A stretch of DNA of 64,000 nt from Escherichia phage EcS1. The translations under genes were made by a program, and so were the position numbers. Under the pieces are notes generated by a model. That model made no database searches, had not been told where the DNA came from, and saw only the letters and a program-made list of their open reading frames with translations. This document shows positions 2,761-28,761 of this stretch, piece after piece (within the stretch, counting starts at the first letter, position 1; each line of letters starts with the position of its first letter). The DNA lies in sequence record NC_055721.1; one strand, written 5' to 3'.

Positions 2761-2768
2761 TGTAGCAA

Positions 2769-4850: not shown

Positions 4851-4876
4851 AGCAAAAAGGGCCTAAGCCCTTTTAC
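4851..4876 (-). terminator. terminator-like hairpin (bidirectional-looking)
   Basis: aaaaagggc-ctaa-gcccttttt; GC stem flanked by A-run and T-run, between gene 39 start and the upstream ORF. Confidence 0.55.
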
Positions 4877-5335: not shown

Positions 5336-5413
5336 ATTTTAGCCTTAATGGTTAAAGTGTAACGTTTCATACCGACACGTATCTTATATACGCCTGGTTT
5401 AATAGGACGAGCT

Positions 5414-5608
5414 TTAGGCAACATTAGGATTTCCTTTATGGTTATCATAGAAGCCACCATGTACATAACCAGGCGCCGTTACAGAACGTTCTGCAATGCC
5501 TTCACACATCAATGCAGTACATTCTACAGGTTCGTCACGTTCTGAAATTTTACGAATCTTTTCAATTTTTTCTGCACAAATAGTACAGTGGTATTCATAA
5601 ATTGGCAT
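5414..5608 (-). CDS. FmdB-family zinc-ribbon protein
   Basis: MPIYEYHCTIC...VECTALMCEG: characteristic MPIYEY + CxxC...CxxC zinc ribbon. Confidence 0.5.
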   Translation of the reverse strand: MPIYEYHCTICAEKIEKIRKISERDEPVECTALMCEGIAERSVTAPGYVHGGFYDNHKGNPNVA

Positions 5609-5613
5609 AGTAC

Positions 5614-6063
5614 CTACTTAAAACGAATTTCATTAAGACGTTCAATAGCCCAAAGACGAGAAGCTTCATCTTCTACATAGATATTGATAGTACCATTGAC
5701 TTCAATAACAGGTTTCTTAGGCTGTGCTTTAGCAACATCAGGGTCCACCCAATGTTTCTCAGGCCATTCATATAAAGCCCGATCAGAAATTAACATGAAA
5801 TGACGACGCAAACTATCTAGAATAGCGCAATAGCTCCACTCATAACTTCCGTCTTTAGTATAAAGCTTGATTTTTAAAACGCGATTTGAAACGTCTTCAT
5901 CATCAGCATCTTTTCTGGTATCACGTTTAATAACTTCAAATGGATTATTTCTTAAGTCTTTAGCCAAGCGACGGTCTAAAGGACTAATGGAAACCATCAA
6001 AGCATGATACCCATCATCAGTTAGAACATAAGTGTGTTTTAAATGAAACATTAGTTTAACCAC
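5614..6063 (-). CDS. hypothetical protein
   Basis: 149-aa ORF in co-directional array between gene 39 and dexA; no recognisable motif. Confidence 0.45.
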   Translation of the reverse strand: MVKLMFHLKHTYVLTDDGYHALMVSISPLDRRLAKDLRNNPFEVIKRDTRKDADDEDVSNRVLKIKLYTKDGSYEWSYCAILDSLRRHFMLISDRALYEWPEKHWVDPDVAKAQPKKPVIEVNGTINIYVEDEASRLWAIERLNEIRFK

Positions 6064-6440
6064 GCTGCAGTAATGGCTTTAATCGCACGTTCAGCTTGCT
6101 CTTGATTAGAGACACTGAACATCATTTCAGATTTGTCTAAAGACTGTTCAACCTGAGCTTCGCTAAGTTCAGTAAAGAATTTAGCTTCTTCGTCTAACAA
6201 CATAAAACTATGGTCAATAGACCCAATAACATCGCCAGCAGCAGAACCGTTTACAAACAAAACGTGGTCGGCATTGTCCATACTATCTAAATGTAAGACA
6301 GTGAATTCAGTGCCATTTTCTGTAATTAATCGAGATGCACTTTTATTGTAAATATGGGCATTGATAAACCCATTCACATCAGCCAGTGCATAGCGAGCAC
6401 CTAATTTAAATTCTTTAGCCATTAAATAGCTTCCTTCCAA
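6051..6440 (-). CDS. hypothetical protein
   Basis: 129-aa ORF; overlaps neighbours by a few codons as typical for T4-like early genes. Confidence 0.45.
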   Translation of the reverse strand: MEGSYLMAKEFKLGARYALADVNGFINAHIYNKSASRLITENGTEFTVLHLDSMDNADHVLFVNGSAAGDVIGSIDHSFMLLDEEAKFFTELSEAQVEQSLDKSEMMFSVSNQEQAERAIKAITAAWLN

Positions 6441-6619
6441 TAAGTTGTACCTTTCGCAGTGATATGACGAACTGCTACATAAATGGCTAAATCACCTTCA
6501 TACACATAAGCATAAGAATGATGTTCAAGACCAGAAGTTACTTCTTTCTGCACAACAGATAAGATAGGGCTGTACAGGATATCTTCAAATTGGTCTTGAG
6601 TAAGTGGTTGTTTAGACAT
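6422..6619 (-). CDS. hypothetical protein
   Basis: 65-aa ORF directly downstream of an early promoter cassette; GGAG Shine-Dalgarno before ATG. Confidence 0.45.
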   Translation of the reverse strand: MSKQPLTQDQFEDILYSPILSVVQKEVTSGLEHHSYAYVYEGDLAIYVAVRHITAKGTTYWKEAI

Positions 6620-6639
6620 TTTATATCTCCAGTTTGTTA

Positions 6640-6680
6640 GTGTAGGAACACTATACCATGTTCCTACACCGTTGTAAACA
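6640..6680 (-). promoter_or_regulatory. T4-type early promoter with embedded inverted repeat (PeSL-like cassette)
   Basis: Minus strand reads GTTTAC-18-TATAGT with TG extension; 10-bp inverted repeat GTGTAGGAAC/GTTCCTACAC flanks the -10. Confidence 0.5.
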
Positions 6681-6687
6681 CTTTAGA

Positions 6688-7086
6688 TTAAATTGTTCCG
6701 AAGTGCTTTGGTTTTGCTTTGCCTAAGTCTTCTAAGTTACTGATTTCAACCCAAGCAAAATCACCTTGGAATACAATGTTAGCATAATCACCATCAACTA
6801 GAGTACACAAAGCATACAATTCCTGGCCTTTTTGATGACCATCATTTGAGACGATGGATTCTTTTGTTTTAACATAATGTCCTTCAAGAGAAGGATTAAT
6901 AAGAGTTGCAAACTTACGACGGACATAACCTACTTGACCATTATCTGCTTTGATAACGAGTTCATCAGCAATACCACCAGCGGTAGCCCATGGACGGATA
7001 TCAAGAACTACACCTTGCAGACCTTTGATGCATGAACGAGAAGCAGAAGAAACTTGTACACGAGAACCAACAATAATATGAGACAT
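6688..7086 (-). CDS. hypothetical protein
   Basis: 132-aa ORF just downstream of dexA; no recognisable motif. Confidence 0.45.
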   Translation of the reverse strand: MSHIIVGSRVQVSSASRSCIKGLQGVVLDIRPWATAGGIADELVIKADNGQVGYVRRKFATLINPSLEGHYVKTKESIVSNDGHQKGQELYALCTLVDGDYANIVFQGDFAWVEISNLEDLGKAKPKHFGTI

Positions 7087-7096
7087 TCAATTCACC

Positions 7097-7780
7097 TTAG
7101 CGAGTTTTAGGAAGAGATAAAGGATCGGCATTACTTTCATCAGGGACTTCATCAAGTCCAAGTGCATACCGTTGAGCATATTTTAACATCAAAATATCTT
7201 TAGCACAATCGTGAATCGAATCATGCATAACGAAACCATTTAACGTGTCTGCTGGCAATGGAGTAGTAGACAAACCACGGACCATCGAATAACATTCAAT
7301 TGCTGTACGGATATCACGTTGATTCCAGAACTTACATGGTTCAGCAGTGAAGGTATCAATTTCTTCTTCAGCTACACCTGCATCACGTTGGATTTCACGG
7401 ATATGGTCAGTAAAGATTGGGAAGTCAAATGACATACCACGGCACCAACCTTGTGAATTCCATGCATCGACGCCTTGTTCTTTTAAGTACATCAAGGCTT
7501 CAGTGATGCCATCTACAATAGTCATATCATTTTCAGATGGGGCCAAGTTAGCTCGTGCTTCTGCTGACTGCCCTTTCCACCATTTGATGGTTCCTTTAGA
7601 GAACGTACGATGACCTTTCTGTGCAGCAAGATTAAATTTAATACGCTTACCACGAGCCACAAGTTCATCAAATGTTTCTACGACAGTCGGATCGGCATTA
7701 AAGGCAATTAACGCAAGGTCAATTACTGCTGCATTAGGTGTTGACCCGAAGGTCTCATAGTCAATTGTAAAATCAATCAT
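7097..7780 (-). CDS. dexA: exonuclease A (DnaQ-like 3'-5' exonuclease)
   Basis: 227 aa, same length and position as T4 DexA; N-terminal DxE-type exonuclease motif (IDFTIDYETFG). Confidence 0.8.
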   Translation of the reverse strand: MIDFTIDYETFGSTPNAAVIDLALIAFNADPTVVETFDELVARGKRIKFNLAAQKGHRTFSKGTIKWWKGQSAEARANLAPSENDMTIVDGITEALMYLKEQGVDAWNSQGWCRGMSFDFPIFTDHIREIQRDAGVAEEEIDTFTAEPCKFWNQRDIRTAIECYSMVRGLSTTPLPADTLNGFVMHDSIHDCAKDILMLKYAQRYALGLDEVPDESNADPLSLPKTR

Positions 7781-8012
7781 CGGTTGCTACCTTAAATTGT
7801 AAAATCAAATCAGCCACATGTTCACTGATACAAATATCAGGAGCTAGACCTGTGAACCAAATGATTGAGTCAGTTTTAGCTTTAATTGCTTCAAGTTTGT
7901 CAATTAATTCCCAGCCTATTCGCTGGGCAGTATCGTTATCTTTTGCTGAACGATGTTGGACTTTAATTGAATTAAGCAAATCAAGAAAATGTTCTTCGTG
8001 TAATCTGTACAT
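7773..8012 (-). CDS. hypothetical protein (dexA.1 position)
   Basis: 79-aa ORF between dda and dexA. Confidence 0.4.
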   Translation of the reverse strand: MYRLHEEHFLDLLNSIKVQHRSAKDNDTAQRIGWELIDKLEAIKAKTDSIIWFTGLAPDICISEHVADLILQFKVATDD

Positions 8013-8019
8013 ATTTCAC

Positions 8020-9345
8020 CTATACAAAATAAACATCATGACGAGCACGGGTAGCTGAAACGTATGCTAATTGCTTAGCTAAATCAATGTCAGCCAATGT
8101 GATGCACGGAGTATAGATGAATGTATTGTCTACGCTTATACCCTGTGACTTATGAATCGTACTACAAGGAAGAGCTTTAACTTTCAAGAAGGTTCGCTTA
8201 GCGTCCCAGAAGTCAGCCCAATGTGGTCGTCTTCCTGCTGATTTTAACTCACGATATGTTGTAGCAACTTTAGCCAAGAACATATCAAATTTCTGTTTCT
8301 CGTTTGCATCAGCAAGGACTTTAATAGTTTCACGTTGATAATCGTCATCTTCGTCTACAGTTTCGACTTCAAGATGCCAATATGAAATCATTTGCTTAAC
8401 AGAAACATCTCGTGCCTTCAAGAAAGTAGAAGTGAGTTTACAATCAAGAATACGAATCATTTGTCCATTATTGAAGATAATCTCATTGAACTTCTTACCA
8501 TCAAATTCGAGTTGCTTCATGTATGGCTCTTGCATAACTAGCACTTCGCCAACGATAAATGGGTTCTCTGTTTCATAAAGCTTACGACGAATAATACCAT
8601 TTAACTTATCGACTGACTTATTAGTATAAGCAAGCATACGAGTTTCAAATAAGTCTTCAGGGCTTTTAACCACATCAAAATACTTCATCATGTATTGTTG
8701 GAGAGGTTTATCACCACCAAAACCATGGAATCCATGACCATCTTCAATACATTCACGGAACCAACCACCAGTACGAATTTCAGTAGCGACTTTAATGATA
8801 GGTCCATTAGAACGTTTCACTTCAGTCAATGTGACTTGTTTGAAACGTGAGTCACTGAAGAAAGGTGACTTGGATGGTAGACTATCACCAGGAGAAACAG
8901 GACGAAGTTGTTCTTCATCACCAATACCAATGACAGTACAATGAGATGGAATAGTGTTCATCAAAATCTTGAACAGAGCGCCATCATACATCGACCCTTC
9001 ATCACAAAACAACACGCGACATTTAGCTAAGTCAGGCATTTCTTTCTGTTCGAAGATGCTTTCAGCTTCGTAAGTTGTTGGTGAAATTTTCAAGACACTA
9101 TGAATCGTAGCAGCTTCATGCCCAGACAATTTAGATAATACTTTTTTAGCCTGGTGAGTAGGTGCAGCCAACATTATCCCTAGCTCACCATTACGAACTA
9201 GATGTTCTAAAATGAATTTAGTCATGGTTGTTTTACCAGTCCCTGCGGGACCGTTAATCATGACATGGAATTTCTTTGTTTTAATAGCTTCAATTACTAC
9301 ATCAAATGCAGATTTTTGACCTACCGTTAAGTCTTCAAATTTCAT
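8020..9345 (-). CDS. dda: Dda DNA helicase (SF1B)
   Basis: 441 aa; Walker A INGPAGTGKTT and overall strong match to my recollection of T4 Dda (LAAPTH.AKK.LSKLSG.EA.TIHS, KALP.ST.HK.QG.SVD, TPCI). Confidence 0.9.
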   Translation of the reverse strand: MKFEDLTVGQKSAFDVVIEAIKTKKFHVMINGPAGTGKTTMTKFILEHLVRNGELGIMLAAPTHQAKKVLSKLSGHEAATIHSVLKISPTTYEAESIFEQKEMPDLAKCRVLFCDEGSMYDGALFKILMNTIPSHCTVIGIGDEEQLRPVSPGDSLPSKSPFFSDSRFKQVTLTEVKRSNGPIIKVATEIRTGGWFRECIEDGHGFHGFGGDKPLQQYMMKYFDVVKSPEDLFETRMLAYTNKSVDKLNGIIRRKLYETENPFIVGEVLVMQEPYMKQLEFDGKKFNEIIFNNGQMIRILDCKLTSTFLKARDVSVKQMISYWHLEVETVDEDDDYQRETIKVLADANEKQKFDMFLAKVATTYRELKSAGRRPHWADFWDAKRTFLKVKALPCSTIHKSQGISVDNTFIYTPCITLADIDLAKQLAYVSATRARHDVYFV

Positions 9346-17436: not shown

Positions 17437-17802
17437 TTATAATTGATACCATTTTGGTTTTATTTCACTTAATGCCTGTTGAATCTGTATCATAATACAT
17501 TTTTCAACGTGTTCGGCCAGTTCGGCTTTTCTTTCTTCAGATGGAGTCCCGAAATCAACAGTACATTCACCTTTTGGTGAAATATTAATCCCAGTAACAT
17601 ATACGATATGAGGAGTCCCATCAGGCAAGGTAAGCAATATTTCTTGCTTCACTCGACCCATAGACTCCTTAATTATTTTTAGAGACCTCTCATAGAAACG
17701 AGAGTCCTCGTTTGAGGACTCCTCTTCTGTTTCTACTTCGAAATTACTGAGGTCTGCTAAATCAGCATCAGTAACATTATTCATCTTCACCTGCGAAATC
17801 AT
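17437..17802 (-). CDS. 40: hypothetical protein at gene 40 position
   Basis: 121-aa acidic ORF between uvsX and 41; assignment by position only. Confidence 0.4.
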   Translation of the reverse strand: MISQVKMNNVTDADLADLSNFEVETEEESSNEDSRFYERSLKIIKESMGRVKQEILLTLPDGTPHIVYVTGINISPKGECTVDFGTPSEERKAELAEHVEKCIMIQIQQALSEIKPKWYQL

Positions 17803-18952
17803 CTAATTCGGATTCAATATCAGCAGCACTGACGCCTTTTGATTCAGGCACAATGAACTTTTCAACTTTAGACATAATCAAATCATCAACTTCAGCATCA
17901 ACTGTAGCGTTAGAATCGATTGCACCTAATTGATAATGACGTTTGATTGCTTCACGGAATGGTTCATGTTTGAACAATGGAGACCAGAACTCAGTTGAGC
18001 TTGTGTCTTTTGCTCGCCATGATTTTTCTTCACGAATCATTTCACCCGTTTCGATGTCAAGATATTCACGTGAATACCAACCATTCTTAGGTTTAACAAC
18101 AAAGCCTAAGGTCTGAGCCATATCAAGTAGACCAGAATAAGGGTCAATACCACCATCAAATTTAACGTCAATAAAGAACTTAGATTTCTCTTTAACCGCA
18201 CGAGATTTCTCTGCATTCAATACGAACTGGAAGCCTTCAAGTTCTTTACCGGCTTCTTTAATCTGACGTTTACCAATAATGAATACGGTGTCAGCAGAAT
18301 ACATCACACCGGTACCACCAGTCATGACAGTCTTACTAAACATTTCCATAGTTTCGATGGTATGGTTAACCGCAACACAAGGGATGTCTTTAATACTGAA
18401 GAACGGAGTAACGATACGGAACAGAGACTTCAGCTGCTTAGCACGAGTCATATCGGCTACAGTTTTCTCGTTCAATGCATCTTCTGTTTCTTTCTTAGAA
18501 GCCATATTACCAATTGAGTCGATGAAGATAATAACCTTCTCACCACGTTCAATTGCTTCAAGTTGGTTTACCATATCAATCTTCAGTTGTTCTACTGACT
18601 GGATCGGTGTATGGATAACACGTTCTGGGTCAACTTTCATTGCACGCAGATAAGCTTCAGAGATACCGAATTCACTATCATAGAACAGACAGATAGCTTC
18701 TGGGTATTTGTTCATGTATGCTGAAACCATCGTTAAACCCATGTTGGATTTAAAGTGTTTAGAAGGACCAGCAAAGATTGTTAAGCCTGATTGCATACCA
18801 CCATCAAGGGCACCAGAGATTGCGATATTCAGCATCGGAATCTTTGTACGAACCACATCTTTATCATTGAAGAACTTTGACTTAGTCAGTTCAGCAGTCA
18901 TTTTAGAGGTGGATGCTTTAATCAGACGAGATTTCAGGTCAGCGAGTGCCAT
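17777..18952 (-). CDS. uvsX: UvsX recombinase (RecA-like)
   Basis: 391 aa; long identical runs with my recollection of T4 UvsX (DLKSRLIKASTSK.TAELT.SKFFN.KDVVRTKIPM.NIA.SG, GPSK.FKSN.GLTMVS.YM). Confidence 0.95.
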   Translation of the reverse strand: MALADLKSRLIKASTSKMTAELTKSKFFNDKDVVRTKIPMLNIAISGALDGGMQSGLTIFAGPSKHFKSNMGLTMVSAYMNKYPEAICLFYDSEFGISEAYLRAMKVDPERVIHTPIQSVEQLKIDMVNQLEAIERGEKVIIFIDSIGNMASKKETEDALNEKTVADMTRAKQLKSLFRIVTPFFSIKDIPCVAVNHTIETMEMFSKTVMTGGTGVMYSADTVFIIGKRQIKEAGKELEGFQFVLNAEKSRAVKEKSKFFIDVKFDGGIDPYSGLLDMAQTLGFVVKPKNGWYSREYLDIETGEMIREEKSWRAKDTSSTEFWSPLFKHEPFREAIKRHYQLGAIDSNATVDAEVDDLIMSKVEKFIVPESKGVSAADIESELDDFAGEDE

Positions 18953-19036: not shown

Positions 19037-19579
19037 CTATTTGGCCCACTTGATAATGCTTGTGATAATTGAATTGCGAGATGCAGGATAAATGCCTTCT
19101 ACATTATTTGAATCGTCATGTTTCAAGATTTGTCTGATACTTAAATCGTTATCATCTGCGAATTCATGGAATGATTTAATAATTTGGTTAAAGCCAAATG
19201 GGCTCAATGAGATCAAATCATCTTCAAAATCTGTTTTGATTTCATTACGAGTTAGAATCAATGTATAAACTTTGTGATTATCAATTAATCGATTAAAGTC
19301 CACTTCGTACTGTTCAACACATTTCTCATTGCGTAGTTTACCATAAACCCAATTACTGATATAACCACGATCTAATAGATAGATTTTGCTAGAATCGAGA
19401 TAATTTAGCATCGTTTCGAAGCAAGATACTTCATTACGACTTTTGATATCAAATCGACCATCATCTGTACGTTTTGGGAAGTCAATGAGCTCATAACGAT
19501 CAGAAATTTGACAGATATCACGAATCAATGTTGTTTTACCAGCATTGTCAGGTCCGTCAATATAAATTATTTTAGCCAC
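19037..19579 (-). CDS. P-loop kinase-like protein (nucleotide/sugar kinase fold, substrate unknown)
   Basis: 180 aa; Walker A GPDNAGKTT at residues 8-16; sits where T4 has beta-glucosyltransferase. Confidence 0.5.
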   Translation of the reverse strand: MAKIIYIDGPDNAGKTTLIRDICQISDRYELIDFPKRTDDGRFDIKSRNEVSCFETMLNYLDSSKIYLLDRGYISNWVYGKLRNEKCVEQYEVDFNRLIDNHKVYTLILTRNEIKTDFEDDLISLSPFGFNQIIKSFHEFADDNDLSIRQILKHDDSNNVEGIYPASRNSIITSIIKWAK

Positions 19580-20478
19580 AAATCACCTTCAATAATGATG
19601 TCTTCACGTTTAGGAATGTTGTATGGAGAATGAATGTTACACCGAAAGTAAACAAGTTCTGCTAGTCCAGGATGAAACACCTTTTCAGGGTTTTCATTAT
19701 ACAAGATAACAGGAGTTGCTTTTAACACACGATAATATTCTTTCTTGTTCAACTTGATAAGATGTATTTTATCATAGTTATACTCAGAAGCATCATATGT
19801 ATCATTTGGGTCAGTGATATACAAGTCAAGGTTTAAACCCTTACAAGTTCTAATGACCTTTTTGAAGTTATAACATTTATCACTAATACGGAATGGATGG
19901 AATACACCCTTAAACTTGATAGGGTCTGTGTTGCGAGAGAACGTCTGCATGACGTCAGGATTAATTACTCGCTGTGAGACTATAATCTTATCTTCATCTG
20001 CGCCGTATGCAACCAGGGTATCTTTCTGACACTTGTTCAACACAAATGTACGAAGGCTTTGATTCACTGATAGAACATCAAGATCAATAAACTCATCAAT
20101 GTAATACCGTTCTACTTCACGGTCTTTAGTGATATTGAAATTATAGATGACTTCATTTTTACCTGGATAACCTGTGATATCAGTCACAAGATGAGCACAA
20201 TCAAAGTAATCCATTAATGAATCGATGACAAACCAGTTCTCTTCCCAGAAATGCTTACGAGATTCATATGCATTATCTTTATACCAGACAGGACAGAATG
20301 TGATTTCAGGGAACAGTTCTCTCAACTCTTCTTCGTCATCATTATTCTTTGGAATACAAATGATGTCACCGGGACTAGCCCGGTGTAATTGGAGTTGAAA
20401 GTTACCGTCTTTAAGAATAGCATAATTACCAGTTTCGTAAGAACGCATTGAAAAGATAGGAACGATCAATTTAGCCAT
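19567..20478 (-). CDS. hypothetical protein; positional candidate for hmC sugar transferase
   Basis: 303-aa ORF with start overlapping gp42 stop; no motif I can assign by eye; occupies the bgt locus. Confidence 0.4.
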   Translation of the reverse strand: MAKLIVPIFSMRSYETGNYAILKDGNFQLQLHRASPGDIICIPKNNDDEEELRELFPEITFCPVWYKDNAYESRKHFWEENWFVIDSLMDYFDCAHLVTDITGYPGKNEVIYNFNITKDREVERYYIDEFIDLDVLSVNQSLRTFVLNKCQKDTLVAYGADEDKIIVSQRVINPDVMQTFSRNTDPIKFKGVFHPFRISDKCYNFKKVIRTCKGLNLDLYITDPNDTYDASEYNYDKIHLIKLNKKEYYRVLKATPVILYNENPEKVFHPGLAELVYFRCNIHSPYNIPKREDIIIEGDLWLK

Positions 20479-21176
20479 TATTTTAAGAACCTTTTAACAT
20501 AATCAAAGTCACGCTCAAAGACGTGGGCTGACACCATAGAGTGAGTGTATGAACCCATTTTAACACCACATTCATCAGCAATATATTTCATCAATTTCTG
20601 CTGAAGATAAAAATCAAGTTGCATAACTACAGCACAGTTCTGAGAACGCATATGACAGTGAGTATGAAGACGATCATCACGGATATAATACGTTATGGAA
20701 TCCGTGCAAGGGTATTCTAGGGTCTCATCACTATCAAGCAGTGTTTGGTCGCTTGATTCGAGAATCTGGAACACAACACGTCGCGAGTTAGGCTTCTCTT
20801 TAAGTTCTTTGAGAAGGGTTGGTAACTGGGCAACAATACGAGGTCCATAAAAAGTGTTGAAGTTTGCAGGCAATGTGTCACTTTTTGGTTTTGAAATGAA
20901 TTTAGCAACATTAGGATATTCCTTAAATGCTTCTACTGCATCAGTACCACCAGAAATCATGAATTGCCAGAATGATTCAGCGTAATCATAATCGATACGA
21001 TTGATACGTTCGTCTTGGAAGATGGCAGATTCTGGTTCGAACACTTCAATTACTGCCGAGCCAATTTCATGACATCGACCTATACGAGAATCAGTCACAA
21101 AATCTGGTGACTTCAAGATGAGCTCATTCATCTCTTTAAATGCTTCTTCAAACGTCCAGGCTTTAACTGAAATCAT
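20478..21176 (-). CDS. 42: dCMP hydroxymethylase gp42 (thymidylate-synthase fold)
   Basis: 232 aa; PCTDSITYYIRDD and MRSQN...D match the T4 gp42 catalytic Cys region and the cytosine-specifying Asp; NSRRVVFQ resembles the phosphate-binding SRR. Confidence 0.8.
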   Translation of the reverse strand: MISVKAWTFEEAFKEMNELILKSPDFVTDSRIGRCHEIGSAVIEVFEPESAIFQDERINRIDYDYAESFWQFMISGGTDAVEAFKEYPNVAKFISKPKSDTLPANFNTFYGPRIVAQLPTLLKELKEKPNSRRVVFQILESSDQTLLDSDETLEYPCTDSITYYIRDDRLHTHCHMRSQNCAVVMQLDFYLQQKLMKYIADECGVKMGSYTHSMVSAHVFERDFDYVKRFLK

Positions 21177-21517
21177 AGTACCTCTTGTCGTTTTTTACTT
21201 TCATTAAAAATAAATTGATAGATCGATTTTAACTCATCAGGAACTGCAGCGAGTTTAAATGCTTCGACTTCAAGGTTCTCGACAGGAAGATTATGTTTCT
21301 TCTTCAAGGACCCAATAGCATCGGTAACTTTAAATCGACGTTCTAACAACTTATGCATTTCATAATCAATGTCTTCAATTTCATTACGCATTACATTGAG
21401 AAGTCGAGAAGGACTTGGCTTGACATCAAATGGATTATAAGTTGCTGGGTCTTCTCCCGCCTGAATACGGCGGGATTTAATAGAGATTTCGTTCATCATA
21501 TGGTTGATACGTCTCAT
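21173..21517 (-). CDS. AroQ-type chorismate mutase-like protein
   Basis: 114 aa; LLNVMRNEIEDIDYEMHKLLERRFKVTDAIGSLKKKHNLPV...ES...Q follows the CM_2 pattern; start overlaps gp42 stop (ATGA). Confidence 0.55.
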   Translation of the reverse strand: MRRINHMMNEISIKSRRIQAGEDPATYNPFDVKPSPSRLLNVMRNEIEDIDYEMHKLLERRFKVTDAIGSLKKKHNLPVENLEVEAFKLAAVPDELKSIYQFIFNESKKRQEVL

Positions 21518-22773
21518 TCTGGGTACCTCATTGCGTCGTCTGCATTATCAGTAATTGATACAATCTGGATTGAATTCAGTGGCATATCGTTCTTAGATAA
21601 TTGTCGTTTGTAATAACGTTCACAATAAGTACAAGTTGAACCACAGACTTCATTAGCACAATCAAAGTCAGGATGTTTGAACCAACGTTTCTTCAAGAAG
21701 CCATCTAACAATGATGTTTCAATATTCACTGTGTGTTGATAGTCAACTTCAGATTCATTAGTATAGATCGTTTCTAGTGGCTTCCAGAGCTCAAGGAGGT
21801 TACCTTCGAAATGTTCTGATGAATAAGCTTCCAGAACTTTCATGATGTACTCTGTTGACCCTGTACGTCCTGACACTTTGAACTGAGTGATACCAATGTC
21901 ACGATACAACGCTAAATCTTGTGGACGTACAAAACGTGTACGAAGCCAGTTGAATGGGTCAGTGTCTCGTGCTTTGATACAGTGCTGCATCGGATACCCA
22001 TCTAACTTCTGGGCATCTTCTGATGTGATATCAGTAGAGTGGAAAATATAACATGAATCACGATAGCTACAATGAGTGGTATAACCTTTGCCTGCGTTAG
22101 AACAGAATTCATTAACCAGGATTTCAAAGATAATGCCAGCTTCATTACAATATTTCGCAGCTTGTTTCAAGAATGATACGCTACGGTTCTTGTGAATACC
22201 ACAACACACTTTTTTGATGTTGTATTGTTCATGAAGATACTTAATCTGAGTTACCGCATCTACGTGCAGGATAGTCGAGATTTCGAATTCGATTTCAGTA
22301 TTAACTTCACGAACGATTTGCATTACGATTGGGTTAGCAACAGTAATACGATACACACCGATTGACCACAAGTACTGGACATATTCTTGGATAGCTACTT
22401 TCTTCCAATCGTCGAGTTCACGTTTAGAACCAGGGTTAATGCTGTTGAACGTGTAGTTGAAGCAAATACCAAGTTCATTACAACGAGCAACATATTCTTC
22501 TAATTGAGAATTTTTTACATCAGGAAGACGAAAATCAGGGCGAGCAGCAACGAAGGCCATTTCACGAGTTGACCCATAGACTTCATTAATCAATGAATCA
22601 GGGTTCTTAGCATTCAACTCTACAATTTTATCCAGTAGAGCCAAGTCAAAGTTAGTACCAATTTTAAAAGTTTGTTTTTGCATTTTCATCTCTTTTAAGC
22701 AGGAAAAGGATGCGATGTCTTTTGCAGGCTTGTTACAATTAAGGTTTATATGGAGCGTGATGTTCGAAAACAC
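21514..22773 (-). CDS. U32-family protein (putative prephenate-dependent hydroxylase; Cys cluster)
   Basis: ANPIVMQIVRE, FKVSGRTGSTEY and EFCSNAGKGYTTHCSYRDSC align with TrhP/YegQ-type U32 motifs; C-terminal CxxxCxxCxxC. Caller start is GTG; ATG at 22687-22689 (MKMQKQ) is likelier. Confidence 0.55.
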   Translation of the reverse strand: MFSNITLHINLNCNKPAKDIASFSCLKEMKMQKQTFKIGTNFDLALLDKIVELNAKNPDSLINEVYGSTREMAFVAARPDFRLPDVKNSQLEEYVARCNELGICFNYTFNSINPGSKRELDDWKKVAIQEYVQYLWSIGVYRITVANPIVMQIVREVNTEIEFEISTILHVDAVTQIKYLHEQYNIKKVCCGIHKNRSVSFLKQAAKYCNEAGIIFEILVNEFCSNAGKGYTTHCSYRDSCYIFHSTDITSEDAQKLDGYPMQHCIKARDTDPFNWLRTRFVRPQDLALYRDIGITQFKVSGRTGSTEYIMKVLEAYSSEHFEGNLLELWKPLETIYTNESEVDYQHTVNIETSLLDGFLKKRWFKHPDFDCANEVCGSTCTYCERYYKRQLSKNDMPLNSIQIVSITDNADDAMRYPE

Positions 22774-23098
22774 CTTTTTGCATTAATGATTTGAATGTAT
22801 CAGGACGCATAGCTTTGTCATCGATAATCCAATCATACGCAGGTTTGTGAGTCATAAGTTCATGATATCTGAGTCCGATCTTTTCCAGATTCTTGACTAG
22901 ACCAGGAACTATTTCAACAGAGATACGACCAGGACCACATGATGTCATACCACGAGCAGTGTAGAGGACAATTATATGACCTTCATCATAAAGCTTATTA
23001 ATCATAGACACCATGACGGTGTCCGGATGAAAGTTTTCATAATCACGATTACTATTCCAATGAGTAATCGTGTTATCAATATCAAAGCAAATACGCAT
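22739..23098 (-). CDS. HAD-superfamily phosphatase
   Basis: Likely start ATG 23096-23098 overlapping upstream stop (TAATG): MRICFDIDNTIT (DxDxT), YTAR, IIDDKA. Confidence 0.6.
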   Translation of the reverse strand: MRICFDIDNTITHWNSNRDYENFHPDTVMVSMINKLYDEGHIIVLYTARGMTSCGPGRISVEIVPGLVKNLEKIGLRYHELMTHKPAYDWIIDDKAMRPDTFKSLMQKGVFEHHAPYKP

Positions 23099-24777
23099 TA
23101 GATAGGTTCCCACTGATGTTTGATATCACCACCGACAGGACGATATTCTACACCAGTTTCTTTATCAAGCAGAACCCATTTGCCTGGGTTCTTAGTGATT
23201 AACGTAGCCACAACCGGTTCAGCTTCATCAAATGAAACTGTATCATCTTGAAGTCTACGGCCCATTTTACGTAACTGTTTTGTTAGTAGCATCATGCCAT
23301 AATAATATGCAGCAGTTGCTTTCAATGGGTTGTTCTTGAAATAACCACCAAGTGCAATCCAAATAATGGCTACAGCAAGATGATGATATTCATTGAACAT
23401 ATCAGTCTTTTCATATTTGTATACTAAAGGAGCAATATTGACCCAAGCATTTTCATCATCAATGGTAAGGCCACCCCAAGCATGATTAGCATTAAAACTA
23501 TCATAGCCAGAAATAGCATAAAGAACTTTTGCTTCATCATACAAACGAGGGCCATAAATTTCAGTCTCGCCAAAGTAGCCACGAGGGTCAATGAACCGGA
23601 CTTTGCCGTCATATTGAATCATGGTATTGCTAAAGTTAGGGTCACCATGAATAACTGAATACTGACGGCCTTGAGTTTCATGATGATGATAAATCAAATG
23701 AGATAATGCTTGTTTGAGCATTGGTTTCAAACGTCCAAGTTTAACACCATTAACATGGGTTATTTTGCCGAATGAATTCACTACACCTTGAATACTTTCG
23801 CAACGGTCAATAACCTTAGTGTAGAACTCTTTAGTGAAGTCACGTTCAATTGTATTTTCAGAAGCATATACTTCATTACCAAAGTTTAATGCTTCAAGAA
23901 TGTCTTCAATTTTATTAAACTGGTGGTCTGCTGGTAAACCGTACAACCATTCAAATGCTGGAAGACCTTTAATGCGTTCCATTACAAAACTATTTTCTGT
24001 AACGGCTTCGATAAATGGTGTAGCATCAGAACTAACTGAACGATACCAAGATAGTTCTTTCTCTTGGAGTTTTTTACCTTGCTCAGTTACTGCAATCTTT
24101 TCTACAGTATGTTCATGCATTTCAACAGAGTTAAAACTACGGTTCAGTTCACGATCTTTGTGCGCGTCATGAAGCTTAATCATATCACCTAAATCAATAA
24201 GATTTAGAAGTTCAGAATAAGTGAATACTTTAGGGTAGATAAATTCTACAAAGTCTCGTCCACGACAAGCATCATGAATTTCTTCTTTGCTTTCGCCTTG
24301 CCAGAATTCCCAATCTCTGAATTGATAGATTCCAACTACGTTACCACCAGTGTCACCTACGTTTTTAATTGAATCACCGTCGAACTTATAACGACATTCA
24401 TTACCTTTAACATAGATCGCATTTTGGTCCCAAGACCATGAACCAAAGTCAGGAATAATGTCGCACCAGTTAACGATTACATTATGACCTTCAAGGAACT
24501 TACTCATCGTAGCTAATGCATAAGCAGAACCGTATGCTTCATCTACTGTATGAACAATGATATTCAAACCTTCTTGTTCGGCATAAGCCACTACAGTTTC
24601 AGCGAATTTTGAATGCACGACTACATAAATTTCATCTGCACCAAGGTCTGCATAGATGTCATGCAAGTTCTTTAAGATTGTATGTTGTTTGTAGTTAACC
24701 AACACCTTTGGGATATGATGTGTAACTGGATACAAACGAGTTGCTAATCCAGCTCCTAGAATAACTGCCTTTTTCAT
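23098..24777 (-). CDS. bifunctional sugar-1-phosphate nucleotidylyltransferase / APH-type sugar kinase
   Basis: 559 aa; N-terminal MKKAVILGAGLATRLYP (RmlA/MurU-like); C-terminal IHGDPNFSNTM and FIDPRG (aminoglycoside/choline-kinase fold). Confidence 0.65.
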   Translation of the reverse strand: MKKAVILGAGLATRLYPVTHHIPKVLVNYKQHTILKNLHDIYADLGADEIYVVVHSKFAETVVAYAEQEGLNIIVHTVDEAYGSAYALATMSKFLEGHNVIVNWCDIIPDFGSWSWDQNAIYVKGNECRYKFDGDSIKNVGDTGGNVVGIYQFRDWEFWQGESKEEIHDACRGRDFVEFIYPKVFTYSELLNLIDLGDMIKLHDAHKDRELNRSFNSVEMHEHTVEKIAVTEQGKKLQEKELSWYRSVSSDATPFIEAVTENSFVMERIKGLPAFEWLYGLPADHQFNKIEDILEALNFGNEVYASENTIERDFTKEFYTKVIDRCESIQGVVNSFGKITHVNGVKLGRLKPMLKQALSHLIYHHHETQGRQYSVIHGDPNFSNTMIQYDGKVRFIDPRGYFGETEIYGPRLYDEAKVLYAISGYDSFNANHAWGGLTIDDENAWVNIAPLVYKYEKTDMFNEYHHLAVAIIWIALGGYFKNNPLKATAAYYYGMMLLTKQLRKMGRRLQDDTVSFDEAEPVVATLITKNPGKWVLLDKETGVEYRPVGGDIKHQWEPI

Positions 24778-24815: not shown

Positions 24816-24959
24816 TTAATTAAAGCACTGGAACTTAGCTTGTAACCAAAGCATGACCCAAGCAACCATAAGTGTAGGAATCATTACTGGAGTCATGATA
24901 CTCCAGTAAATAGTTGCGCCAAAGAATAACAATAATAAAAATATGGCTAGATATTTCAT
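24816..24959 (-). CDS. small hydrophobic membrane protein (47 aa)
   Basis: Unlisted ORF MKYLAIFLLLLFFGATIYWSIMTPVMIPTLMVAWVMLWLQ...; ATG overlaps the isomerase stop (TGATG). Confidence 0.35.
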   Translation of the reverse strand: MKYLAIFLLLLFFGATIYWSIMTPVMIPTLMVAWVMLWLQAKFQCFN

Positions 24960-25585
24960 CAGTCACCGCGCAATTGAGCACCTAATGCACCACCTGGATG
25001 GAAGCGTAGGAAGTCGTCAGGAGTAAAGCCACGTTCGGCTGAAAGGTTAATTGCAAAGGTATCAATCAGAGCCAAGAGCAACGTCGTGGACATTGTAGGC
25101 GCCAACTTATGCTCATCAATCTCAACTGCCTTGCCTGTACAGAAAGTATAGTCAAACAAAGCTAGTACACCAGAATTCAAATCAGGATTGCAATGTAAAA
25201 GGATTTGTTTAACACCAGGACGAATTCTTCGTAGATGTTTAACCACCCCAATCATTTCTTCAGTCTTACCAGAACGAGAGATATGAATCAATACATCATC
25301 AGGACCAATGAAACCTGCATCGCCATGAGAATAATGTCCAGTGTTCAAGTAAAGACTTGGAATACCCAACGAGGCCATTGTTTCTGAAGCCTTAGTGGCG
25401 ATATTAGCGTTTTTACCTACGCCGGTGATGATTACACGGCCTTTGTAATCGGAGAGCCCAGGGCCACGCAGGCATTGCAGTATTTGATTATACGAGTTCT
25501 CATGGTCAACTACAATATCAGATAAAGTAATAAGAGCTGAAGTTTGTAGTACTAAAGCATCTCTTGCACGTAAAATAGGATTCAT
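24959..25585 (-). CDS. D-arabinose-5-phosphate isomerase-like SIS-domain protein (KdsD/KpsF-type, no CBS pair)
   Basis: GRVIITGVGKN, HISRSGKTEE, LAPTMSTT, FHPGGALG align with KdsD; likely start ATG 25583-25585 (MNPILRA) overlapping the upstream stop. Confidence 0.75.
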   Translation of the reverse strand: MNPILRARDALVLQTSALITLSDIVVDHENSYNQILQCLRGPGLSDYKGRVIITGVGKNANIATKASETMASLGIPSLYLNTGHYSHGDAGFIGPDDVLIHISRSGKTEEMIGVVKHLRRIRPGVKQILLHCNPDLNSGVLALFDYTFCTGKAVEIDEHKLAPTMSTTLLLALIDTFAINLSAERGFTPDDFLRFHPGGALGAQLRGD

Positions 25586-26001
25586 TAGATATTTTCTTCC
25601 ACACATTTATTAACTGTTGAGTAATAATTACTAGCAGCATTCACATAAGTATTTTTATGGAGTTCTGCAGCTTTATAATCGCCTGATTCAAGAGCAACGG
25701 AATAATTATATTCGATCTTAGATAGTTTAACATCAATTATCTGTTGACATTTACGAGCTAATGCTGAACGTTTCTCTGCATTTGTTGTTCTGAGCAATGC
25801 TTCACGTTCACCTGGAAACTCAACACGTTCTACTTTCATGTTCGCGTACTTATCACAGTTACCACCACATTGATTAGATACACGTTCGTAGATAAGCCCA
25901 GTTCCACCTTTGAATTTAAGATTCCCGTCATAAGGCTGGTTGATATTTGTTCCAGCACATCCTACAAGACTTAATGATAATGCAATGATTAATAGTTTCA
26001 T
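25585..26001 (-). CDS. putative lipoprotein (imm/imm.1 position)
   Basis: MKLLIIALSLSLVGCAG: signal peptide with lipobox; 138 aa, Cys-containing mature part. Confidence 0.5.
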   Translation of the reverse strand: MKLLIIALSLSLVGCAGTNINQPYDGNLKFKGGTGLIYERVSNQCGGNCDKYANMKVERVEFPGEREALLRTTNAEKRSALARKCQQIIDVKLSKIEYNYSVALESGDYKAAELHKNTYVNAASNYYSTVNKCVEENI

Positions 26002-26049: not shown

Positions 26050-28761
26050 TTAGAAATCAAACATATCAAACAATGTTGCTTTCTTCTCGTAGTCAATCTT
26101 AGCAGCATCAGTGAATGATGTCAGAGGTTTAGTGAATGTCTTCGCGAACAGAGCTGGGAAGTCAATCCACTTCAGAACTTCAGAACGAATCTCTGGTGTG
26201 ATGTCTGAACCTGATGGCCAACTGATGCATGTATCACCAAATGGGTTCTGTTCTTTAAGTGGAAGAACCATAACCTTTTCACCTTCAGTAATAGAAGGAA
26301 CGTTAGGCATACCTTTGGTTGCACGGTTATAAGTCAAAATGCCACGAATATGATACGGACATTTAGGACCAGGATAACCTTGGTTGTCATACTTCATGAT
26401 GTTGTTCGCACTTGACACTGCAGCGATCGTTTTATAGTTTTGCTGACGGAATTCGTGTTCGAATTCTTTAAAGTAAGTTTGTAACGATTCTTCACCTTCT
26501 TGAAGCATACGTCTGATACATTCTTTCAATGCTTTCTGACATGCTTTAGGAGTACTTGATTTCTGAGTTTCTAGACCCATGATTTTGAGTTTAGGTTCAG
26601 CGTATCGGGTCCCTTCCATGTCCCACACATTCAGTGCATATCGTTTCTTAGCAGTCCAGAAACCGCCAATACCTTTAGAACCAAGTGGTGGTCCTGAAAT
26701 AGCTTCACGGTCCATGAACATCAAATGTTCTTTGTTGTTCATGTATTCACACATTTCACGGAAACCTTTATCAATAGCTGGTTCGAGTTTATCTTTACCA
26801 AACTTATCTAGGAAGTCTACTAAATGGTTCGTATCACGGAAACGATCTTCACCTACTTTTTCTACTAACTTATCAACACAAATATAAACTGAGTCAGTGT
26901 CACCAGCGATAACATAACTATGACCTTCAGTTCCTACAACCGAGTTCATATATTCGTTAATCTTACGTTCAATCCATTGGATTGCCATTTGACCAAACAA
27001 TGTGATTGCAGATGCATTACGCAAGTCGTAATAACGGAACCATACGTTACCAAGTGCACCATAAAGTGAGTTGATAAGTAACTTACGGTTAATCTGTGCT
27101 GTGTTACCTGCGATAGAAGCACGGTCGCATTTATCAAGCAAGGCTTGTAATGATTCTTTGGTCAGACAACCTAGAAGTTCTTTCATTTCATCAGTGAAGT
27201 CTTTATTGTATGTGAATTCTTCGATACAATCTTCATTACCAAACGAAGTATGTTGTAACTTCTCTTTAACAAGTTCCATGTTACGCTGAGCGCCAAGCAT
27301 ATAACCTTTATGCTCTTTACGTTGTAAGAACACCTTAGTGATTTCTTCTGGGATAACACCTTGGTAAGTCTTGTCATACATCCAGCCATTAGGAGAACAT
27401 GAATATTCATCCGAAGGACGTGGTGCAGTCTTATTGATGTAATCATGAATAGGATGTAATTGGAACTGTCCAGCCAATGTTTCTGGGCTGATATTAACTT
27501 GACGAATGATACTTGGGTACAGAGATGTTAAGTCACAAGACATAATGTACTTGTAGCTATTCGGAACAGGTTCTTTTACGTACGCACCTGGATAGCTTTG
27601 CTTAACATGTGAACGACATTGTGGAATAACTTTCTTCTTGGTCTTCAATGAGTTGAAAATGATTGCGTCCCATGTTTTAATAGGACTAAACACAGATTGA
27701 ATCTGCATCTTAGCATAATAACCCATTGACAAGCTCAAGTTAATGAACTGTCGTTTCTGGTCAATTCGTTGCACACGTTCAACGTCAATAATGTTATAAG
27801 AAATATATCGTTGATGGTTTGTTTCACGCAACTTATTAATTGGACCATCATAAGCCAGCTTACCTTCACCTAATTCATATTCTGCTACATAGTCAAGTGA
27901 ATATGAAGGTTGGTTTGTGAAACTGAATTTCTTATAGAGTTCGATGTAATCTAGATGGCTGATACCATAAATCTGAATTACTTCACGTTCACCATACATG
28001 TTCTGGATAATTTTAGACTTAGTACGTCGATGTGGAGATAACCGATTCGCAGTCTTTTCACCAAACACATTTTTAATGCGGTTATAGATGTAAGGGATAT
28101 CAAATGATTCGGTGTTCCAACCAGTGAAAACAACTGGAGTCTTTTCAGTCCAGAGGTTCAGATATTGAAGTAGAAGTTCTTGTTCATCTTCACATGGGAT
28201 GTAAACAACCTTATCAAGAATTCGTTGTGGAACTGCATCGCCACCTTCGCTTTCAGGAAGACCAGCTCGTTTAATGTCCCAACGAGTTACGTTGCCATAA
28301 GGAGAATTCAACAGGTCGAACACATAGTAACGGTCGTCAATTGAGTCATAGTGTGTAATAGCATCAATTGGATAGTTCGCCTGGGATGGATCAGGGAACT
28401 CAGGAGCAGTTACTTCGATGTCACAGTTAGCAACACGAATCAAACGATCGTCATAATGAATGTCTTTGCTATAAGTGTCAGACAGATAGGCTAACTTAAA
28501 GTCATCCATACCCATCGCATCTAGACCCATGTCTTCCATACGACGAATCCAGTTATTTGCATCACGCATATTAGGGAACGTTTTCTTAACACAGCCCTTA
28601 CCATAGATATCAAGATATTTTGTAGCTTGCCCTTGTGGACCATGCATGAACAGATTAGGTTCATATTTCACTTCACGAGAACGTTCTTTACCTGAAGAGT
28701 CAATATAACGTTCGTATAATGTGTCACCAACTTGTTCGATAGTTAAATAGAATTCTTGCAT
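26050..28761 (-). CDS. 43: DNA polymerase gp43 (family B)
   Basis: 903 aa; closely matches my recollection of RB69/T4 gp43 (MKEFYLT.EQ.GD...ERYID, YGDTDS, KKRYA, SLYPSII). Confidence 0.95.
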   Translation of the reverse strand: MQEFYLTIEQVGDTLYERYIDSSGKERSREVKYEPNLFMHGPQGQATKYLDIYGKGCVKKTFPNMRDANNWIRRMEDMGLDAMGMDDFKLAYLSDTYSKDIHYDDRLIRVANCDIEVTAPEFPDPSQANYPIDAITHYDSIDDRYYVFDLLNSPYGNVTRWDIKRAGLPESEGGDAVPQRILDKVVYIPCEDEQELLLQYLNLWTEKTPVVFTGWNTESFDIPYIYNRIKNVFGEKTANRLSPHRRTKSKIIQNMYGEREVIQIYGISHLDYIELYKKFSFTNQPSYSLDYVAEYELGEGKLAYDGPINKLRETNHQRYISYNIIDVERVQRIDQKRQFINLSLSMGYYAKMQIQSVFSPIKTWDAIIFNSLKTKKKVIPQCRSHVKQSYPGAYVKEPVPNSYKYIMSCDLTSLYPSIIRQVNISPETLAGQFQLHPIHDYINKTAPRPSDEYSCSPNGWMYDKTYQGVIPEEITKVFLQRKEHKGYMLGAQRNMELVKEKLQHTSFGNEDCIEEFTYNKDFTDEMKELLGCLTKESLQALLDKCDRASIAGNTAQINRKLLINSLYGALGNVWFRYYDLRNASAITLFGQMAIQWIERKINEYMNSVVGTEGHSYVIAGDTDSVYICVDKLVEKVGEDRFRDTNHLVDFLDKFGKDKLEPAIDKGFREMCEYMNNKEHLMFMDREAISGPPLGSKGIGGFWTAKKRYALNVWDMEGTRYAEPKLKIMGLETQKSSTPKACQKALKECIRRMLQEGEESLQTYFKEFEHEFRQQNYKTIAAVSSANNIMKYDNQGYPGPKCPYHIRGILTYNRATKGMPNVPSITEGEKVMVLPLKEQNPFGDTCISWPSGSDITPEIRSEVLKWIDFPALFAKTFTKPLTSFTDAAKIDYEKKATLFDMFDF

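Follow-up and report, generated by a model that had tools for sequence, protein, structure and literature searches.

A U32-family protein and a chorismate mutase in the arabinosyl-5-hydroxycytosine gene cluster of Escherichia phage EcS1: candidates for an oxygen-independent route to 5-hydroxycytosine

The DNA-modification region of Escherichia phage EcS1 (NC_055721.1) was analysed within a window of 64,000 nucleotides, which is the whole stretch of DNA considered here, with the focus on two adjacent genes on its minus strand: one for a U32-family protein (21514..22683) and one for an AroQ-type monofunctional chorismate mutase (CM; 21173..21517). We lean slightly towards regarding this pair as a second, O2-independent route to 5-hydroxycytosine (5hoC) for arabinosylated DNA, operating beside the thymidylate synthase (TS) homolog encoded immediately downstream (20478..21176, minus strand). 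As to the components of this proposal, we are fairly confident that the U32 protein is a prephenate-linked hydroxylase, and its substrate is likely to be a pyrimidine deoxynucleotide or DNA. A preliminary description of the same DNA had suggested that the phage brings its own prephenate source and a U32 hydroxylase acting on C5 of a pyrimidine, and this core idea is probably right. A viral U32 hydroxylase directed at DNA precursors and provided with a dedicated prephenate supply would probably be a role new to the literature searched.

The membership of the first protein in the U32 family was supported by Pfam Peptidase_U32 (PF01136), which matched residues 128-318 of a 419-aa reading with 42.2 bits against a gathering threshold of 22.4 (E 7.3e-11), and by its assignment to phrog_5757 (E 5e-258). 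The AlphaFold2 model (pLDDT 90.3) had the U32 peptidase Mk0906 (5D88; E 5e-7, TM(target) 0.69) as its best PDB match in Foldseek, a model-based comparison consistent with the U32 fold; apart from 5D88 the matches were generic TIM barrels and included no further U32 structure, and a PDB search with the sequence gave chance matches only. While the family given in the preliminary description was upheld by both PF01136 and the 5D88 fold match, the start and the length of 419 aa were not. With the GTG at 22773 as start, the ORF would share its first part with the 3'-terminal part of the HAD phosphatase gene, whose stop is at 22739. From the N-termini of homologs and the spacing to the Shine-Dalgarno sequence, the start is instead ATG 22683 (389 aa, the same length as RB69 ORF050c) or the alternative ATG 22689 (391 aa).

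Profile-profile comparison with the E. coli U32 proteins by hhalign gave probabilities of 68% for RlhA, 15% for TrhP, 5% for UbiU and <1% for UbiV. The best match, RlhA (E. coli YdcP; E 4.7e-5 over 202 columns), bears the RefSeq name 23S rRNA 5-hydroxycytidine C2501 synthase. In the NCBIfam scan the sole match was UbiU, with 17 bits against a cutoff of 440, so that no characterised subfamily fitted. By these comparisons the phage protein is placed outside the RlhA, TrhP, UbiU and UbiV subfamilies, in a clade of its own, phrog_5757. The U32 motifs that had earlier been matched to TrhP by eye were reproduced by profile alignment, in which VANPIVMQIVRE pairs with SDPGLIMLVRE of TrhP and FKVSGRTGSTEY with KIEGRTKSFYY. 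Between EcS1 and phage RB69, whose RB69p050 (ORF050c) is a direct ortholog, the U32 identity is 82.6%, compared with 78% for TS, 72% for gp43 and 70% for UvsX; no other protein there is as well conserved, and selection on it is therefore strong.

Ten cysteines were invariant in the 34-member family alignment, including a C-terminal Cx4Cx3Cx2C; the Cys-rich segment pointed out in the preliminary description is thereby real and conserved. The canonical CX3C pair is absent. C207 and C213 (391-aa numbering; THC-SYRDS-CYIFHS) align with RlhA C169 and C176, the first two cluster ligands (ALCVAYSGQCYISHA); the reference four-Cys motif reads CX6CX15-16CX3C in RlhA/TrhP and comprises C169/C176/C193/C232 in UbiU. 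The invariant C196, C237, C162 and C181 could act as substitutes for the missing cluster ligands, and the C-terminal motif may hold a second cluster. Cys spacing varies within the family, a strict regular expression for the central Cys pattern matching 26 of 124 representatives.

The product of the second gene (114 aa) matched Pfam CM_2 (PF01817) over the full 80-position profile, with 46.2 bits against a threshold of 27 (E 5.3e-12), and PDB entry 1YBZ, the CM of P. furiosus, aligned with it over the whole domain (E 8e-8); the AroQ-type CM recognised earlier from the sequence pattern was thus corroborated. The catalytic domain occupies residues ~37-113, after a 36-aa N-terminal extension, and helices were predicted at 36-74, 82-89 and 94-113, i.e. 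in the three-helix AroQ pattern, in a low-confidence model (pLDDT 66.8). Searching with this model, Foldseek returned annotated CMs as 5 of the 6 best PDB matches with weak E-values (0.2-3); its top match, 1YBZ, is labelled 'conserved hypothetical' there and named CM in the sequence-based PDB match. R44, R61, K72, E85, S107 and Q111 are equivalent to R11, R28, K39, E52, S84 and Q88 of the E. coli CM (EcCM), for which we assume the active-site numbering of 1ECM (R11', R28, K39, D48, R51, E52, S84, Q88). With the exception of E85, these residues of the EcS1 protein are invariant in phage CMs.

The 36-aa extension (21410-21517, minus strand) is predicted to be disordered and in the closest relatives carries a near-invariant S-R-R-I-Q-x-G-x-D-P-A-T-Y-N-P-F. 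Klebsiella and Enterobacter phages have CMs of 79 aa that lack it, and Proteus phage CMs have a longer N-terminal extension with a similar Y-P-G-I-D/E-[IV]-P-P motif. This segment might be a docking peptide for the U32 protein.

The stop codon of the U32 gene and the start codon of the CM gene have the ATGA at 21514-21517 in common, and the CM stop and the TS-homolog start share the ATGA at 21173-21176; at both junctions a GAGG Shine-Dalgarno sequence lies 5-8 nt upstream. The overlapping stop/start codons along the three genes were thus found as first described, and to judge from this arrangement U32, CM and TS homolog are translationally coupled. The scan of 18.5-26.5 kb for sigma-70 promoters and terminators gave counts no better than those of shuffles and was uninformative on operon structure.

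The third gene had initially been taken for gp42, the dCMP hydroxymethylase, and this identification has to be replaced. The 232-aa product (Pfam Thymidylat_synt) is 78.4% identical to RB69 gp48 and exhibits, in E. coli ThyA numbering, L143E, D169N and an Asp in the N177 region (QLDF), with C146 kept. L143E, D169N and Asp for N177 are the signature by which the hydroxylating TS branch was defined (PMC13326640). A T4 gp42-type dCMP hydroxymethylase was considered and rejected, the position of ThyA D169, where Asp goes with folate-dependent one-carbon chemistry, being Asn as in the hydroxylating branch. On this identity and residue pattern, the TS homolog is the ortholog of RB69 gp48, a flavin/O2-dependent 5-hydroxy-dCMP (5hodCMP) synthase. 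RB69 gp48 makes 5hodCMP with bound flavin and an oxygen derived from O2, as followed by 18O2 labelling (PMC13326640). For the HY126 enzyme, a flavin in the crystal structure and reconstitution of the reaction in vitro are on record insofar as He et al. are cited in PMC13326640.

The DNA of RB69 and of Acinetobacter phage DLP3 carries arabinose chains ether-linked to 5-hydroxycytosine and not to hydroxymethylcytosine (Lee et al., Nucleic Acids Research 2026, PMC13326640), and Kagamiyamaviruses, to which EcS1 belongs, are predicted 5-hydroxydeoxycytidine (5hodC) makers in that work. The window holds the complete RB69-type cluster (gp45-55 in RB69, Afh in HY126) in RB69 order with 54-78% identity, comprising arabinose-5-phosphate isomerase (API), an AfhE-like enzyme, HAD phosphatase, glycosyltransferase (GT) and a thymidylate kinase (TMPK)-like kinase. 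The hydroxymethylcytosine expected in the preliminary description accordingly gives way to a predicted arabinosylated 5hoC (PMC13326640). Since an O2-dependent hydroxylase for 5hoC is already proven, the U32-CM pair is probably a second, O2-independent route and neither the sole source of this base nor a further modification of it. The base chemistry is the same in the DNA of RB69, which has U32, and of DLP3, which has not, so the U32 protein adds no extra adduct in aerobic growth. In PMC13326640 the RB69 U32 ortholog (RB69p050) is labelled 'sugar or heterocycle reductase' in a table, with no supporting analysis; the words U32, chorismate and prephenate are absent from the paper, whose discussion mentions hydroxylation pathways of rRNA and tRNA pyrimidines without linking them to the phage cluster.

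The other members of the cluster are likewise on the minus strand, and the DNA-modification genes as a whole are flanked by uvsX (17777-18952) and DNA polymerase gene 43 (26050-28761). Downstream of the TS homolog follow the GT orthologous to RB69 gp46:47 (19567..20478; 54-62% identity to RB69 ORF047c/046c; phrog_3891), which is the predicted first DNA arabinosyltransferase in Table 1 of PMC13326640, and the TMPK-like nucleotide kinase orthologous to RB69 gp45 (19037..19579; phrog_761 thymidylate kinase, E 4e-35; 63% to ORF045c). Upstream of U32 are the HAD phosphatase, ortholog of AfhF/RB69 gp51 (22739..23113; NCBIfam TIGR01689 capsule-biosynthesis phosphatase, E 3e-13; 66% to ORF051c), a proposed arabinose-1,5-bisphosphate 5-phosphatase (PMC13326640); the bifunctional sugar kinase/NDP-sugar pyrophosphorylase, ortholog of AfhE/RB69 gp52:53 (23098..24777; Pfam NTP_transferase with a kinase-like C-terminus; 69-78% to ORF052c/053c); and the API, ortholog of RB69 gp55 (24959..25606; Pfam SIS; NCBIfam KpsF/KdsD, E 1e-32; 74% to ORF055c). 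The source phage, Kagamiyamavirus ecs1 (Straboviridae), is T4-like with a genome of 175,437 bp, and phages of Erwinia, Kosakonia and Serratia, e.g. Gravdalen, Kc304, CHI14, X20 and LC53, are its closest deposited relatives, with ~82% nucleotide identity.

Among cultured phages, the U32 gene was detected by tblastn in 227 records (220 of them at >=60% identity), and its close relatives among the matches listed were all in phages of Enterobacterales or Shewanella. The 5hodCMP-synthase ortholog occurred in 341 records at >=60% identity, 57 of which were Acinetobacter phages. Acinetobacter, an aerobe, was not among the ten most frequent organism names, either for the 227 phage records with U32 or for the 2,891 records with NrdD. 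In Acinetobacter phage Berthold the HAD phosphatase gene abuts the TS homolog with nothing between them, and because of this arrangement U32 and CM together appear as a clean insertion or deletion at the HAD/TS junction. Both U32 and a 5hodCMP-synthase-type TS were present in 16/16 T4-like loci examined, and the strabovirus records with U32, among the matches listed, were all in lineages also carrying such a TS. CM was found in 57 records, among others from phages of Klebsiella, Serratia (including LC53 and 92A1), Yersinia, Proteus, Enterobacter, Erwinia, Edwardsiella, Providencia, Pectobacterium, Morganella and Shewanella. RB69 has no CM; its ORF049c (79 aa, phrog_8601; L002 7170-7409) follows U32 where the CM gene would be expected, joined to it by a stop/start overlap of the same kind. 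As a divergent CM this ORF was rejected, with no Pfam match and an hhalign probability of 0.06 against the phage CM profile.

Beyond these phages, the U32 clade amounted to 478 clusters (50% identity) at E<=1e-30, nearly all of 350-390 aa, and from the phage-like contexts examined it is apparently phage-borne. Recurrent U32 operons were seen in ~30 distant viral loci (45-57% identity). One type has the order GT, API, full-length AfhE-like kinase/pyrophosphorylase, (3-deoxy-D-arabino-heptulosonate 7-phosphate synthase (DAHPS)::CM), HAD and then U32; another consists of a TMPK-like kinase, GT and U32, followed by DnaE. DAHPS::CM fusions adjoin U32 in five loci, namely L034 (8344-9399), L036-L038 and L045 (11070-12188), and DAHPS without CM stands beside U32 at L025:9384-10130; a DAHPS::CM or CM next to U32 was recorded in L034, L036-L038, L045 and L186. 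The nearest named homologs of the phage fusions were from Bacteroidota (45-49% identity). On the oxygen status of the hosts this donor lineage is uninformative by itself, the top named matches including aerobic marine genera; more was learnt from the scan of cellular genomes described below.

A 5hodCMP-type TS was not found within 10 kb of U32 in the ~30 distant viral loci. The sole TS-fold match was in L028, a 230-kb viral contig, upstream of GT, NTP-transferase/kinase and U32 (5500-6351); it was dismissed as a 5hodCMP synthase, since L143, D169 and N177 are kept as in the canonical ThyA type, and it has a six-residue AAGAGG insertion beside the substrate-binding loop. In L003, a jumbo-phage-like 466-kb JGI contig, the region 1448-9086 encodes TMPK, uracil-DNA glycosylase (UDG), a 1615-aa DnaE and a dCMP deaminase overlapping U32, a gene set that hints at some clade members acting on dUMP rather than dCMP.

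One genome bearing the kinase-GT-U32 trio was tiled completely (48,884 bp with a 79-bp terminal repeat, the tiles being conflict-free), and the other TS-less genomes were inspected to +/-10 kb around U32. In the complete genome a TS-fold ORF was not found (best E 0.11, filters off), and its 34 non-structural ORFs gave no Pfam match to ThyX, TET or DNA methyltransferases; as far as its gene content tells, U32 is the only visible candidate to make the acceptor hydroxyl for the GT. Relatives of the ~49-kb phages with 57-60% identity retain the DnaE-RecA-dCMP deaminase module, and no U32, GT or kinase homolog was detected in the 1.4-3 kb of sequence available upstream of their DnaE, which suggests that the trio is a cassette.

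A scan of cellular genomes, one genome per species for 100,044 species, yielded eight close U32 relatives in metagenome-assembled genomes (MAGs) of Erysipelotrichales, Lachnospiraceae, Bacillota (unclassified), Romboutsia (two), Tannerella and candidate division BRC1, and in an isolate of Phocaeicola faecalis. Seven of the eight assemblies, i.e. all but the BRC1 MAG, are attributed to lineages which we take to be obligate anaerobes, as they are generally regarded. The Erysipelotrichales contig encodes U32, a 94-aa monofunctional CM (CM_2 E 8e-19), a TMPK-like kinase and a GT. The contigs of Phocaeicola (isolate), BRC1 and Bacillota carry fusions of a guanylate-kinase-like nucleoside monophosphate (NMP) kinase with a class I S-adenosylmethionine (SAM) methyltransferase (L190:3927-5204, L189:3816-5147 and L188:3903-5147), followed by a conserved ORF of 264-282 aa with no Pfam or PHROG match and then by U32, the genes overlapping. 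The Tannerella contig (L192:3866-5194) matches in the sizes and order of ORFs, with an unannotated 442-aa ORF at the fusion position. The simplest reading of these fusion operons would be that the hydroxyl is introduced on a mononucleotide, which is then methylated and phosphorylated; they mirror the conversion of 5-hydroxyuridine (ho5U) to 5-methoxyuridine in tRNA and may represent a pathway for 5-methoxy-pyrimidine DNA. At 4 kb downstream of its U32 gene, the Bacillota contig has another U32-like ORF, which is very divergent (L188:11218-12351; PF01136 E 1.4e-4; 2e-21 to the EcS1 U32 protein).

The mechanism that we propose builds on what is known of bacterial U32 enzymes. Prephenate was established genetically as the oxygen donor for UbiU/UbiV and proposed as such for all U32 enzymes; in the proposed reaction the substrate undergoes a two-electron oxidation and hydroxide is released through decarboxylation of prephenate to phenylpyruvate, with Fe-S clusters as the probable electron relay (PMC10990095). 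In EcS1, the phage CM would turn host chorismate into prephenate outside the feedback control of host PheA/TyrA, and the U32 Fe-S enzyme would take it as hydroxyl donor, as UbiU/UbiV do, to introduce a hydroxyl at C5 of a cytosine deoxynucleotide (dCMP being the most likely one) or, with lower probability, of C in DNA. The hydroxylated product would then enter the known route through kinases, polymerase and finally arabinosyltransferases. Used stoichiometrically, prephenate would be needed in ~6.6e4 molecules per genome copy by our own estimate (175,437 bp, ~37.5% GC), and such a demand, if real, would account for the repeated acquisition of CM or DAHPS::CM.

The U32 route would serve EcS1 under anoxia, where the flavin/O2-dependent TS homolog would fail. 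An aerobic/anaerobic enzyme pair would fit the anaerobic ribonucleotide reductase of the phage, whose radical-SAM activase NrdG (157 aa) and glycyl-radical enzyme NrdD (607 aa) are encoded at 40263-42546 (minus strand); with these genes the phage is equipped for O2-free dNTP synthesis. In many uncultivated phages lacking the TS, the U32 clade would probably be the sole base hydroxylase, feeding glycosylation or O-methylation. It is in our view an evenly balanced question whether the wider generalisation holds, i.e. that viruses encode a distinct and widespread U32 clade which hydroxylates C5 of pyrimidine deoxynucleotides without O2 at the expense of one prephenate per base, as the anaerobic twin of 5hodCMP synthase in enterobacterial T4-like phages and, in numerous phages assigned to anaerobic Bacillota and Bacteroidales, as the sole hydroxylase, providing the 5-OH group for glycosylated or 5-methoxy pyrimidine DNA.

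Several other explanations for the pair were weighed. It is unlikely, yet worth keeping in mind, that U32 acts after replication on cytosine in the DNA polymer, turning the remaining unmodified C into 5hoC with prephenate supplied by CM; the characterised nucleic-acid U32 enzymes, RlhA and TrhP, all act on polymers (RefSeq names; PMC10990095), and the glycosyltransferases of the cluster likewise act on DNA. The TS-less cassettes speak for mononucleotide chemistry instead, pairing U32 with nucleotide kinases and in some cases with NMP-kinase::methyltransferase fusions, and so does the dCMP deaminase overlapping U32 in L003. Rather improbable is an action of U32 on a sugar or another small molecule of the pathway, e.g. 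the oxidation or hydroxylation of a pentose intermediate. The frequent co-occurrence with API, AfhE-like and HAD genes and the 'sugar or heterocycle reductase' label in Table 1 of PMC13326640 would be in line with it; against this, the label comes without supporting analysis, the kinase-GT-U32 cassettes and kinase::methyltransferase-U32 operons contain no sugar-activation genes, and the adducts of RB69 and DLP3, with and without U32, were by NMR both plain arabinosyl chains on 5hoC.

That the pair modifies RNA, placing ho5U or 5-hydroxycytidine (ho5C) in host or phage tRNA/rRNA and tuning translation as TrhP and RlhA do, we regard as distinctly improbable, even though this is the sole demonstrated biology of nucleic-acid U32 enzymes (PMC10990095) and RlhA is the closest E. 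coli paralog by hhalign. The genes are translationally coupled to a dCMP hydroxylase in a DNA-modification operon, strabovirus U32 was seen, among the matches listed, only in lineages with the 5hoC-type TS, the neighbours in distant phages are DNA polymerase, dNMP-type kinases, dCMP deaminase and dUTPase, and the host already possesses TrhP and RlhA. Finally, it seems highly improbable that the 389-aa protein is a peptidase of the collagenase type and that the 114-aa one is, in place of a CM, either some unrelated helical protein or an AroQ enzyme without mutase function, e.g. isochorismate-pyruvate lyase. The names are in favour of the former: GenBank and PHROGs annotate the U32 protein as 'peptidase' or 'collagenase', and in PHROGs the EcS1 U32 protein is a 'peptidase' and the CM of 'unknown function'. 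Some depositors and UniRef call the orthologs in related phages 'U32 peptidase' and 'chorismate mutase', which are domain names only. However, U32 peptidase activity has historically been weak and the characterised members are hydroxylation factors (PMC10990095), ten cysteines are invariant, and CM or DAHPS::CM has been recruited beside the U32 clade several times. Likewise, the lack of equivalents to D48 and R51, which would suit a non-mutase, is countered by the conservation of six core CM residues.

A number of observations weigh against an O2-independent hydroxylation of cytosine deoxynucleotides by the U32-CM pair. No U32 hydroxylation has been demonstrated in vitro and none is known on deoxynucleotides or DNA (PMC10990095); and in E. 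coli the TS homolog alone is enough for 5hodC (PMC13326640). Of the four canonical U32 cluster cysteines just two are at homologous positions, with the CX3C pair absent. The CM scores below every NCBIfam CM equivalog cut-off (best 32.6 vs 71.2), and in all T4-like phage CMs the positions of EcCM D48 and R51 are occupied by Asn and Val, respectively. The Dhakaviruses (JS10/JS98), which infect E. coli, carry the cluster without U32/CM, and RB69-like Mosigviruses retain U32 with an unrelated 79-aa ORF at the CM position. The correlation with aerobic and anaerobic hosts is phylogenetically confounded, the binning of phage contigs into MAGs can be in error, and the co-occurrence with sugar-activation genes would also fit sugar chemistry.

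Further genes were noticed in the window. Interleaved with the modification genes beside gene 43 are a 138-aa ORF with a lipoprotein-type signal (…SLSLVGC; 25585-26001, minus strand; phrog_1754) and a very hydrophobic 47-aa ORF (24816-24959, minus strand; phrog_3610), which corresponds to RB69 ORF054c; at this place a superinfection-immunity gene is present in JS10. An endonuclease VII ORF (42543-43022) adjoins the NrdG/NrdD pair. On the minus strand, a 355-aa ORF (52014-53081) gave weak AAA_16/STAND-NTPase matches, and a 337-aa ORF (54047-55060) matched RlaP-type (pol-beta family) nucleotidyltransferases of RNA-repair pathways.

The known substrates of U32 enzymes are ribosomes, tRNAs and membrane-bound polyprenyl phenols, hence the lack of an in vitro assay (PMC10990095). 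If the proposed O2-independent route is true, the phage enzyme would be without precedent among U32 enzymes in acting on a soluble small molecule, and with dCMP as substrate it would offer a soluble, commercially available compound along with a natural genetic link to chorismate mutase. For phages in which O2-dependent hydroxylation has taken the place of folate-dependent hydroxymethylation, the route would also explain their continued replication in the anoxic gut, a point that would matter for predicting defence evasion by condition and for the therapeutic use of RB69-like, Klebsiella, Serratia, Yersinia and Proteus phages. The shikimate-pathway genes (CM, DAHPS::CM) would be auxiliary metabolic genes of a new class, in the service of DNA modification, and the TS-less operons point to unexplored hypermodifications in the DNA of gut-anaerobe phages, possibly glycosyl-5-hydroxy or 5-methoxy pyrimidines. 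The misleading annotations 'peptidase/collagenase', 'dCMP hydroxymethylase' and 'hypothetical protein' would be corrected at the same time.

In the literature searched, which did not extend to He et al. 2026 and Mahler et al. 2025, no work linking U32, chorismate mutase or prephenate to phage 5-hydroxycytosine was found, and within the same bounds the statement of the preliminary description that no characterised phage example was known holds. A phage use of prephenate for DNA modification of another kind is that of Synechococcus phage S-B43, where prephenate reportedly gives rise to carboxy-SAM for a methyltransferase-type enzyme acting on DNA, with no U32 and no hydroxylation. This CmoA/CmoX carboxymethylcytosine pathway reportedly links prephenate to the modification of cytosine at C5 in a phage (PMC12783734). 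The phage DAHPS::CM fusions beside U32 have the same architecture as the DAHP synthase::CM fusions of Bacteroidota; sitting in a nucleotide/sugar modification operon, they presumably supply prephenate and do not serve aromatic amino-acid synthesis.

Of the cellular enzymes, RlhA resembles the phage U32 protein in the U32 fold and family, in forming the same C5-hydroxycytosine base as proposed here and in the CYI-H segment at the first two cluster cysteines; per the literature, it depends on prephenate and Fe-S. It differs from the 389-aa phage protein in its 653 aa, extra domains, rRNA substrate and canonical CX6CX15CX3C, whereas the phage protein has no CX3C pair but other invariant cysteines plus the C-terminal Cx4Cx3Cx2C, and DNA-precursor genes as neighbours. 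The motifs VANPxxxxxVRE and K-x-x-GR are common to the phage protein and TrhP-type U32 enzymes. The orthologs of the TS homolog, i.e. RB69 gp48, DLP3 gp80 and the HY126 enzyme, differ from U32 in fold and are O2-dependent. One product made by both an O2 route and a prephenate/U32 route, as proposed for 5hodCMP, has precedents in TrhO/TrhP for ho5U in tRNA and in UbiI-H-F/UbiU-V for ubiquinone. In these bacterial pairs the genes are unlinked and prephenate comes from the housekeeping PheA/TyrA, whereas in EcS1 both putative routes and a dedicated chorismate mutase are adjacent, translationally coupled and carried by a virus.

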